This document shows positions 23,205 through 62,746 of a stretch of 64,000 nucleotides of DNA, piece after piece (within the stretch, counting starts at the first letter, position 1; each line of letters begins with the position of its first letter). The notes under the pieces are model-generated. The model searched no databases and was not told the origin of the DNA. It was given only the letters and a program-made list of their open reading frames with translations. Location of the stretch: positions 252,588,001 through 252,652,000 of the forward strand of contig OZ024740.1 in assembly GCA_964016885.1 (NCBI GenBank). The letters run 5' to 3'. A program made the translations under genes and the position numbers. Source of the DNA: Eledone cirrhosa (lineage: Eukaryota).

Positions 23205-23510
23205 TCGTTTCTGAATTTGTTTAGCAACTGGTGCGTGTGTTTCTTATTGGCAACATGACCCTCCCAAAGTATAACAATATATATATATATATATATATAT
23301 ATATATAAATATATATATATATATAAATATATATATATAAATATATATATATATATAAATATATATATATATATAAATATATATATAAATATATATATGA
23401 ATATATATATATATATATATATATATATATATATATCGTTTCTGAATTTGTTTAGCAACTGGTGCGTGTGTTTCTTATTGGCAACATGACCCTCCCAAAG
23501 TATAACAATA
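23205..23510 (+). mobile_element. Two identical ~75-bp mini-insertions of Neptune-like PLE family 2 (23205-23280 and 23436-23510)
   Basis: Inverted tail CGTTTCTGAATTTGTTTAGCAA fused to the terminal repeat end ...CCCAAAGTATAACAAT; compare 33625-34702. Confidence 0.85.
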
Positions 23511-24112
23511 TATATATATAAATATATATATATATATATATATATATATAAATATATATATAAATATATATATATATATAAATATATATATATATATATA
23601 TATATATATAAATATATATATAAATATATATATATATATAAATATATATATAAATATATATATATATATAAATATATAAATATATATATATATATAAATA
23701 TATATATATATATATATAAATATATAAATATATATATATATATATAAATATATATAAATATATATATATATATAAATATATATATATATATAAATATATA
23801 TATGAATATATATATATATATATATATATATATATATATATATATAAATATATATATGAATATATATATATATATATATATATATATAAATATATATATG
23901 AATATATATATATATATATATATATATATGAATATATATATATATATATATATATATATATATGAATATATATATATATATATATATATATATATATATA
24001 TATATATATATCTATATATGAATATATATATATATATATATATATATGAATATATATATATATATATGAATATATATATATGAATATATATATATATATG
24101 AATATATATATA

Positions 24113-25454
24113 GTAAAGTTCTAGTTTGTAGGAAAGAAAATAAGGCGGCGGTCCCTTCTGGGAAATGGTCATGCTCAGTGTGTAGGAAAGGCGTAGGTAG
24201 AAACTCCATTTTATGTCCCAAATGCAAAGTATGGGTGCATAAAAGATGTAGTGGGATCACAGGTAAGCTAACTAAGAACATAGATTTTTACATGTGGCCG
24301 GTGCTCTGATGCAATAAGTAGCAGCAAGTGCCCACAAAATACTAGCTCATTCAATTGCGCAGAGGGTTCTATAGAAATAGTGGACAGCTTCCGTTACCTG
24401 GGCGACAAAATCAGCAGTGGGGGAGGGTGCTCTGAAAGTACAGTAGCTAGAGTCAGAACTGGTTGGAAAAAGTTCAGAGAGCTTATACCACTATTAGCTG
24501 CTAAAGGGTTCTCCCTAAAAATGAAAGGCAGGTTGTATGATGCCTGCATACGAACAGCAATGTTGCATGGCAGTGAGACCTGGGCATTGTGTTCAGAGGA
24601 TTTACGCAGACTAGAGAGGAACGAAGCTTGCATGCTCCGCTGGATGTGTAACAGTAATATACGTGAATGGCAAAGCATAACCGAACTAAGGAAAAAATTA
24701 GAAATAAGAGGGATCAGATGTTGTTTACTCGAGAGACGGCTACGTTGGTATGGACACGTGATGCGCATGAAAGACGACAGCTGTATAACAAAGTGCAGGG
24801 CAATAAAGATAGACGGTAGCCACGGAGTAGGCAGACCCAGAAAAACATGGGACGAGCTGATAAATTCCGACCTCACACCTCTCCAAGACAATGTCACTGG
24901 ACCAAGACCTTTGGCGGTACTCAGTAATAGAGAAGACCTGCCTTACCTAAATACAAAGTAAAAACCTACTACAGTCAGTAGGCATCTCTATCAAAACACA
25001 CCCCCGTCCCACCACCTCCACCCCATCCACACCGCCCCTTTCAATATAAAGTTATGTTGGTCCCACAACATCCAGGCCGAAACAAATGAGATCGTGTAGG
25101 TGTCACGACAAAAAAACACACAGTCCACGCTGTAAATGTGGCCGTGTAGGCAACACGGTAAAAACCTCCCAGCCCCACACTGTAAATGTGGTTGGTGTTA
25201 GGAAGGGCATCCAGCTGTAGAAAACCCGCCAGACAGTCCACGCTGTAATGTGGCCGTGTAGGCAACACGGTAAAAACCTCCCAGCCCCACACTGTAAATG
25301 TGGTTGGTGTTAGGAAGGGCATCCAACTGTAGAAAACCCGCCAGACAGTCCTATGCGAGCAAGACAACCACTCTTGCCTCAAGTGGGAAAACCCCCGTCC
25401 AAACCCATGCAAGCGTGGAACACGAACGCTAAACCTGATGCTGATGATGATGAT
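24113..25454 (+). mobile_element. RTE family 1, 3' fragment
   Basis: PHD region, ORF 24380-24961, two UTR repeats, GAT tail. Confidence 0.94.
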
Positions 25455-25594
25455 ATATATTTATATATATATATATATATATATATATATATTTATATAT
25501 ATATATATATATATATATATATGAATATATATATATATATATATATAAATATATATATATATATGAATATATATATATATATATATATATATAT

Positions 25595-62020: not shown

Positions 62021-62216
62021 TATGTATATATCTATATATCTATATATATGTATGTGTGTATATATATATATATATATATATATATATATATATGTATATA
62101 TATATATATATATATATATATATATATGTATATATATATATATATATATATATATATATATATATATATATATATATATATATATATATATATATATATA
62201 TATATGTATGTATGTA

Positions 62217-62323
62217 TAACTTTGAATAACTTTGAAATGTTTTGACCAGTATTGGCTCAGGCCATGTCTAACATAATAGCACCACCTGGCGAAGTCTTTC
62301 AATTCAGGATTTGGGCACCATGG
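62217..62323 (-). mobile_element. CR1-group LINE, extreme 3' end
   Basis: Matches 36817-36923. Confidence 0.85.
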
Positions 62324-62507
62324 CGTATGTATGTATGTATGTATGTATGTATGTATGTGTGTGTGTGTATGTATGTATATATATGTATGTATATATATAT
62401 ATATGTATGTATGTATGTATATATATATGTATGTATATATATGTATGTATGTATGTATGTATATATGTATGTATGTATGTATACATATATATATATATAT
62501 ATATATG

Positions 62508-62746
62508 TAGCGGCGATGAATTAGTTTTGCGAGGTTTTTTATATGAAATCGTGTGTCGAAATATTGTATCTGTATTATTTTTGACCGCCGGTCAGTCAAT
62601 GGCAACATTGAGGACCGAGTAAGCTAGATCGCAGATATATATATATAAAAGACAGCGAGAAGCGAAAACCAACCAAACAGTGAGTGTGTTCTGTTATTAA
62701 TTCTGGCAATATTACGCAAATATGACCCTCCCCAAATATAACAATA
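62508..62746 (+). mobile_element. Mini-insertion of Neptune-like family 1: inverted tail plus terminal repeat
   Basis: 62508-62560 is the reverse complement of 28462-28515; the rest matches 28273-28457. Confidence 0.88.

Follow-up and report, generated by a model that had tools for sequence, protein, structure and literature searches.

Head-to-head PLE insertions with paired S1 and tail-tip ends in a (TA)n-rich window of Eledone cirrhosa

PLE insertions in the Eledone cirrhosa window analyzed here (i.e., the whole 64,000-nt stretch of contig OZ024740.1, which is rich in (TA)n tracts and retroelements) raise the question of whether their two ends, lying in opposite orientations, were set by two priming events at two defined positions of the template RNA. 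A sequence-only reading had described one Neptune-like series of five insertions, in which one end lies at a fixed site (S1) and the opposite, inverted end coincides with the tip (S2) of a tail of approximately 55 to 60 nt. This pairing holds at all five loci, and the tail measures 57 to 58 nt; however, the insertions split into two families, A and B, instead of forming one series. Because (TA)n tracts overwhelmed the repeat finder, a masked BLAST self-comparison was used instead, and it revealed a third PLE family (family C), outside the five loci, with ends at S1 and S2 like those of families A and B.

The 24-nt S1 motif (ATG...TATAACAAT) occurs nine times in the window and was absent from 100 shuffled sequences. 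(TA)n directly follows the motif in seven of the nine copies, and at the other two (28456 and 33684) the sequence continues into the tail for 57 or 58 nt. All seven tail-less ends of families A and B lie at the same 4-nt S1 run. S2 forms the inverted end relative to S1 in two-armed insertions, and in family C the tail tip is at one position in 4 of 4 copies. With regard to target-site duplication, every end falls in (TA)n.

Insertions of families A, B, and C

The features of families A and B are as follows.

25595..25903, minus strand: A1, tail-less inverted arm of the pLTR (identity to 28148-28454, 307/307 nt), running from S1 on the outer side to the A-run ahead of ATGGCG, in which its inner end lies
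25906..27921, plus strand: A1, 5'-truncated PLE ORF, 671 aa from stop to stop
28148..28456, plus strand: A1, direct pLTR with a hammerhead-like core (28201-28228), ATG at 28433, and S1 end at 28456
28457..28513, plus strand: A1, tail of 57 nt, matching ORF codons 9-27; its S2 tip abuts (TA)n
62507..62745: A2, mini-insertion; inverted tail-only arm (62510-62561) and direct arm (62561-62745) with its end at S1
33626..34702: B1, tailed arm in inverted orientation (33626 to ~34270) and direct arm (34272-34702) that ends at S1
23206..23278: B2, mini-insertion; an arm of 54 nt with its end at S1, linked via AGCAA to 22 nt of tail in inverted orientation
23437..23509: B2, second copy, equal in sequence to the copy at 23206
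48795..48828, minus strand: B3, one-armed stub of 32 nt ending at S1, without a tail arm
49453-49486: B3, second copy, truncated at the same point as the copy at 48795, from which it differs by one mismatch

A1 as a whole spans 25595-28513, with a tailed arm of approximately 2.6 kb and a tail-less inverted arm of 307 nt; the ATAT match of its S1 end to the target extends to 28458. Its ORF carries an RT with YVDD at residue 287, a C-x4-C-x2-C linker (CTNRKCIIC at residue 538), and, at the C terminus, a GIY-YIG-type endonuclease (VVY and YIGET at 559 and 577). The RVT_1 match was weak, under the curated cutoff; homologs align along the full length, and the best match (69% identity) was a protein labeled Octopus vulgaris. 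A2 combines a 52-nt inverted tail-only arm with a 183-nt tail-less arm, in which a single one of the 183 nt departs from A1, pointing to a young insertion.

The terminal 77 nt of families A and B are 85.7% alike; of the ORF, family B retains the end only, where it is 71% alike to family A. In B1, the tailed arm (~645 nt) comprises the tail, pLTR, 3' UTR, and ORF end, and the tail-less arm measures ~430 nt. The arms have diverged by 10 substitutions and 3 indels, and a 23-nt gap flanked by short repeats shows that secondary deletion does act on such PLE copies. The arm differences were considered, and then dropped, as proof of two templates: a CpG of the hammerhead core has become TG in one of the arms and CA in its partner, a decay that aging would produce. 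In addition, AAAATGGCG, which we take to be a YY1-type motif, is found 50 to 60 nt upstream of the hammerhead core in both Neptune-type families (28148; ~34448); the A1 inverted arm stops in the A-run ahead of it, and the B1 left arm lost it in the 23-nt gap.

The two B2 copies lie 231 bp apart and agree in sequence, in their junction and tip, and in the pattern of impurities of the left flank, AA(8)AA(8)AA(5)AA(4)TGAA(n). Most likely, the copy at 23437 is a tandem duplicate of that at 23206 inside an amplified TA array and the two represent a single event; the five loci would thus reflect four independent insertions, and the foreseen objection that the minis are duplicates applies to this pair. 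The B3 stubs (48797 and 49455) are likewise probably one duplicated event. After duplicates were collapsed, four of five A/B events were two-armed.

Family C comprises the following copies.

28538..32185: C1, inverted tail-only arm (28538-28624) halting at S1, followed by a 5'-truncated ORF body and pLTR
22170..22637: C2, near-perfect palindrome with 187-nt arms, two mismatches, and a 10-nt loop
42497..43087: C3, inverted arm, its outer end lost under another repeat, and direct arm with tail
43286..43457, minus strand: C4, one-armed, ending at the tail tip
14155..14504, minus strand: C5, one-armed, ending at S1
1-1358: C6, with no inverted arm at the 5' junction and no recognizable 3' end (excluded from event counts)

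The family C tail is approximately 84 to 87 nt long. The ORF-bearing tail-less arm of C1 (3.5 kb) ends at S1, and its tail-only arm corresponds exactly to the tail (0-nt gap). The left end of C2 is S1, and its right end is an 84-nt tail. In C3, the partner arm extends ~125 nt further upstream than the tailed arm. Since one-armed insertions occur (B3 at 48797/49455 and family C at 43286 and 14155), the two-armed layout is frequent and not "fixed," as had been claimed.

Several minor features were noted around these copies. A single TA tract separates C3 from C4, whose tails point toward each other, and the family C hammerhead cores have a long stem II that differs among copies. A unit of ~500 bp is present in tandem at 52665-55007, 41837-42480, and 5955-6653, and 54761-55124 holds a piece of it in inverted orientation; a partial copy adjoins C3 and seems to have removed the outer end of C3.

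Position of S1 and S2 and relatives of the elements

The pLTR and tail of family A contain nine TA-type runs, including runs of 11 and 13 nt. The longer runs never serve as ends, so S1 is set by position more than by AT-richness alone. S1 matches the target over 4 to 6 nt in all three families, and S2 matches it over at most 1 to 2 nt.

Both sites fall within the first 28 codons of the ORF (MTLPKYNNI...), with S1 at nt 24-26 and S2 at approximately nt 81 in families A and B, whose tail tips coincide at codon 27/28. Over codons 1-27, the two families differ at 15 nt, 10 of which are third positions (P = 0.0085). This codon pattern and the relatives L002, P0026, and P0032 place S1 at codons 8-9 and S2 at codons 27-28 of the ORF of the next tandem unit. 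Given that S1 and S2 lie inside the ORF start, S2 is probably not the RNA 3' end. No conserved RNA fold was found between S1 and S2 in family A or B (z = 0.23 and 0.56).

L002 is a relative (51%) whose assembly forms a tandem circle; its hammerhead core is followed by MVKTKLPCFGLSFNTRD, which also opens the L002 ORF. The same [FY][DN]TR motif stands at the start of 2 of 37 long homologs (P0026 and P0032) and is absent from the start of the other 35. Protein relatives comprised 14 metagenome loci, 1 genome locus, and no viral locus; these were mostly collapsed consensus contigs, and an insertion end was seen in L001 only. L001 meets (TA)n at its own codon 8 and has no downstream sequence of its own; if it is placed by P0026 (55% identical), the offset of its end from the motif would equal that of S1, in this one contig. 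The exact S1 motif had no match in metagenome or viral contigs, and the L001 end had none in the genome carrying L015. Two relatives stood apart. L003 (1-4901) has a 1,632-codon frame with long low-complexity repeats upstream of the RT, resembling inserts described in PMC3846280, and L015, whose PLE-like ORF sits on a contig of 2.7 kb within a metagenome-assembled bacterial genome, most likely reflects contamination by host DNA.

A single ORF with a PLE-type RT and, at its C terminus, a GIY-YIG endonuclease, the overlap of the pLTR with the ORF start, and the optional tail identify families A and B, from their sequences, as endonuclease-containing (EN+) PLEs. By motifs rather than a reference tree, A and B are Neptune-like and C is Hydra-like. 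In family A, C538, C543, and C546 of the CX2-5CxxC linker are invariant in 24 sequences, as are C554 and C565 of the CCHH residues of the C-terminal endonuclease, with H592 and H608 at least 90% conserved; together with the (TA)n target, these features resemble the Neptune clade as described in PMC8557442. The linker is common to Neptune and Nematis and so is not exclusive. The Hydra clade features described in the same source, including the (TA)n target and hammerhead core, were found in family C: C1 has DKT, a CxCX5C linker (CNCRNKSNC), and the (TA)n target, and C6 has CNCRDRSKC, CDLCAEE (CxxC), and CRH (CxH), flanking E and N. The N-terminal RWK motif of that clade was not found in C1 or C6, both of which are 5' truncated.

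Hammerhead-like CUGANGA/GAAA cores were recognized by eye in the pLTRs of families A and B. Stems I and II fold in family B (B1, 34505-34549) and stem II only in family A, with z-scores that were not significant, and no hammerhead family was among 27 Rfam matches (E up to 5) in region 23000-35000. One extra nucleotide separates CUGANGA from stem II in all hammerhead-like cores of the window and the relatives (28201-28228, 34505-34549, and ~32084; L002 3237; L008 3669; L001 2506), with CUGCCGA replacing CUGANGA in L001.

Arm layout, short reads, and the proposed mechanism

With all three families pooled, the layout was readable for 10 events, 7 of them two-armed and 3 one-armed. All six scorable two-armed events (A1, A2, B1, B2, C1, and C2) pair an S1 end with an S2 end (P = 0.016 for arms choosing independently at 0.5); the counts are small and come from a single window, and the rule was set on families A and B, leaving C1 and C2 as the out-of-sample cases (2 of 2 agree). 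C3, with its lost outer end, was left out of this scoring. As had been noted earlier, the long arm may lie on either side: the tailed arm is the longer one in A1 and B1 and the shorter one in B2 and A2. On the template, A1, B1, and C2 have overlapping arms, and the arms of C1, A2, B2, and one read joint (see below) abut without overlap. Two of the three arms confined to the tail halt within ~8 nt of S1 (C1 at 0 nt and A2 at 5 nt); the third, in B2, halts after 22 of 58 nt, far from S1. Under a rough exponential truncation, the probability that at least two of eight tailed arms end within 6 nt of S1 was 0.002 to 0.016, in a test picked after the data were seen.

The inner junctions of the minis have a microhomology of 1 nt (A2) and 5 nt (B2). 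The AGCAA join proposed for B2 proved to be exact. For A2, the proposed ATATTGT match of 7 nt is present but needs a 4-nt gap, the strict overlap at 62561 being 1 nt; a match of at least 7 nt with a gap of 0 to 6 nt has a chance probability of ~0.004, and ATATTGT may be involved. Microhomology at the joins, by which resolution had been suggested to proceed, varies from 0 to 7 nt and follows no rule.

Short reads from other samples gave additional information. In one RAD run, 354,268 of 12.5 million reads fell on 900 bases of family A (run X13 gave one read). Positions 27914-28154 and 28506-28546 were skipped as repeats, which puts the tail tip outside the view of these data. Molecule-end peaks at 27768/71, 27837, 28410/13, and 28504 coincide with AATT restriction sites and were rejected as element ends. 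Among the joints listed (15 of 45; for loose ends, 18 of 779), five change strand. Their "side" lengths agree with how far AATT sites or the cut edge lie away, from which we infer that all five are head-to-head junctions with scattered inner ends; their microhomologies to the window sequence are 0, 2, 7, 2, and 0 nt, and each has a single start and may represent one locus or a library chimera. One of them, in run X16 (27860/28460), has its inner end at 28458-28464, i.e., in the tail beside S1, joined to an arm starting in the ORF end. A further joint (28458/28251), with a TA tract in between, places an S1 end in the read sample. Read depth across S1 in X16 changed from 3,172 to 2,264 (-29%) in one mate class and from 2,126 to 2,544 (+20%) in the other, and it fell by 24% in the X7 contigs; no conclusion was drawn from these depth changes. 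Confounded by AATT sites, the reads yielded no clean histogram of ends.

We consider two-site priming on both target strands with a head-to-head join, including a stall at S1, the best explanation of these structures (probability, roughly 0.6). As template, a transcript of tandem or partial-tandem units would serve, its pLTR continuing into the next ORF start, a run-on that the codon pattern and relatives display in families A and B. The PLE protein would cut both strands of the (TA)n target; both target strands are cut and extended in vitro by PAc, an anole element (PMC11167929). One target 3' end would be extended from S2 and the other from S1, 57 to 58 nt (A and B) or ~84 to 87 nt (C) upstream, where AUAU in the RNA may pair with the target. 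The cDNAs would grow inward and be joined head to head with 0 to 7 nt of microhomology, as seen at the junctions, and priming at a single end would yield one-armed, 5'-truncated copies such as those observed. If both ends prime on one RNA, the S2 product would stall at the occupied S1 and leave a tail-only inverted arm. This stall is the least secure step: arms confined to the tail and stopping at S1 (the X16 joint, C1, and A2, but not B2) are compatible with a single primed RNA and give a hint that both ends were copied from one molecule simultaneously. Where the S2 product passes S1, the other arm would depend on an additional pLTR copy, another RNA molecule, strand displacement, or fold-back. 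The overlapping arms of A1, B1, and C2 make one undisplaced RNA insufficient, and the longer partner arm of C3 argues against simple displacement if the lost C3 end was S1. Of the two priming events on opposite strands proposed by the sequence-only reading, the two defined sites are thus retained as the best reading, which family C strengthens, whereas the assignment of one of them to the RNA 3' end probably fails.

Other routes to the same structures were weighed against this scheme. The ends could have been set by endonuclease resolution of a DNA intermediate (PMC8557442) rather than by two RT starts. Such resolution yields two sharp positions with a possible tail at either end, and the Drosophila virilis endonuclease requires tail sequence for recognition (cited in PMC11167929); on the other hand, the genomic ends of PAc coincide with in vitro RT initiation sites (PMC11167929), and two primers explain tail-only arms abutting a long tail-less arm (C1 and A2) more simply, so we regard this route as unlikely. 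Single priming at S2, followed by fold-back or self-priming (PMC3846280) and closure of the second arm on the target at the ATAT of S1, predicts a palindrome like C2 with its 10-nt loop, the nesting of the tail-less arm in the tailed arm (A1, B1, and C2), and the S1-target match of all three families. As the sole mechanism, it fails for A2, B2, and C1, where the tail-less arm has sequence missing from the tailed arm (in C1, fold-back from a tail-only cDNA could not give a 3.5-kb arm), and it leaves the disuse of longer TA runs in the pLTR against it; we hold it to be rather unlikely.

The reciprocal minis might instead be later microhomology deletions of larger inverted insertions and thus be uninformative on priming. 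Removing the part of B1 between its two AGCAA copies yields the B2 junction, B1 already has its repeat-flanked gap, many such deletions have been reported (PMC3846280), and 23206/23437 is a duplicate; B2 may have arisen by secondary deletion. As a general account, this is improbable: it would require chance to have put the breakpoints at S1 in C1, in A2, and in the X16 joint (P = 0.002 to 0.016), A2 is nearly identical to A1, and the one-of-each rule of the outer ends would be left unexplained. Inverted repeats and microsatellites are also difficult to assemble, and identical minis could be a false duplication; nevertheless, three families with consistent, codon-linked ends, and head-to-head joints and an S1-then-TA end in raw short reads from another sample, make an assembly or long-read artifact in TA-rich DNA very improbable.

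Two-site priming may also be programmed, with one RNP using two active sites at two fixed positions of a single RNA, each serving one target strand, the tail acting as the spacer and the tail-only arm as the footprint left where the downstream RT stalls at the upstream primer, across Neptune- and Hydra-type clades. We put this forward tentatively, as a possibility that falls somewhat short of an even chance; if it is true, the inverted structure would be the normal product of PLE integration.

Known systems and neighboring repeats

The two-ended head-to-head layout itself is already known. Like the elements in the window, canonical EN+ PLEs are inverted head to head and 5' truncated in a microsatellite target, their pLTR includes the first ORF codons and a hammerhead motif, and an optional tail lies at one end only, on either side, i.e., on one of two inverted pLTRs (PMC3846280 and PMC8557442). 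Their tails measure 30 to 40 nt, in contrast to 57 to 58 and ~84 to 87 nt here, and the text of these sources that we consulted holds no description of a tail-only inverted arm ending at the pLTR end. The origin of the inverted pLTRs and tails has been called unresolved (PMC8557442).

The mechanism of the sequence-only reading is close to one supported in vitro for PAc (Poseidon of Anolis carolinensis), in which RT starts at two sites in the ORF 5' region that bracket the tail, both strands of an AT-rich target are cut and extended, and a dimer is predicted (PMC11167929). PAc belongs to the Penelope/Poseidon clade and initiates 111 to 118 nt into the ORF, unlike S1 (nt 24-26) and S2 (nt ~81) here. 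Its start site is equal between strands and lacks homology to the target, unlike S1, which matches (TA)n; the strand-equal start and the initiation without target homology speak against the two-site model here. In the parts of PMC11167929 available to us, the two start sites are not tied to the two arms of one insertion, and later PLE integration steps are described as "yet to be validated." Twin and dual priming of L1 likewise involve two target 3' ends on one (twin) or two (dual) RNAs, with arms in inverted orientation, either abutting or separated by a small gap, and variants in which the first RT halts in the 3' tail (PMC2837659). L1 primes at poly(A) and at random internal microhomology, in contrast to the two fixed internal positions here, and the enzyme here is a GIY-YIG PLE, unlike that of L1. 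A literature search combining Penelope, twin priming, and inverted found no PLE paper, and no further PLE-mechanism paper was found, in searches covering few subscription papers.

New here, on the basis of a few events, are a family C that obeys the same rule, the one-of-each pairing across two clades, and a tail-only arm halting at S1. If the pairing and the S1 stop hold genome-wide, they would link two-site initiation in vitro to the inverted structure and provide two countable predictions, for which high-copy (TA)n families (cf. the read abundance of family A) are a good testing ground.

The window also contains other repeats beside the PLEs. A LINE with many copies (44866-48222, 16071-18095, 59823-61342, 2440-5620, 24112-25452, and 63063-64000) encodes, in the copy at 44866-48222, an AP endonuclease, an RT, and a PHD finger after the RT, and this family ends in (GAT)n beside TA tracts. 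A second LINE family (36817-38022, 51259-52032, and 62217-62325) has its end, AACTTTGAATAACTTTGAAATG, against (TA)n in three of three copies. Near-palindromic noncoding elements of several hundred bases are found at 32358-32893, 32558-32696, and 38140-38440.
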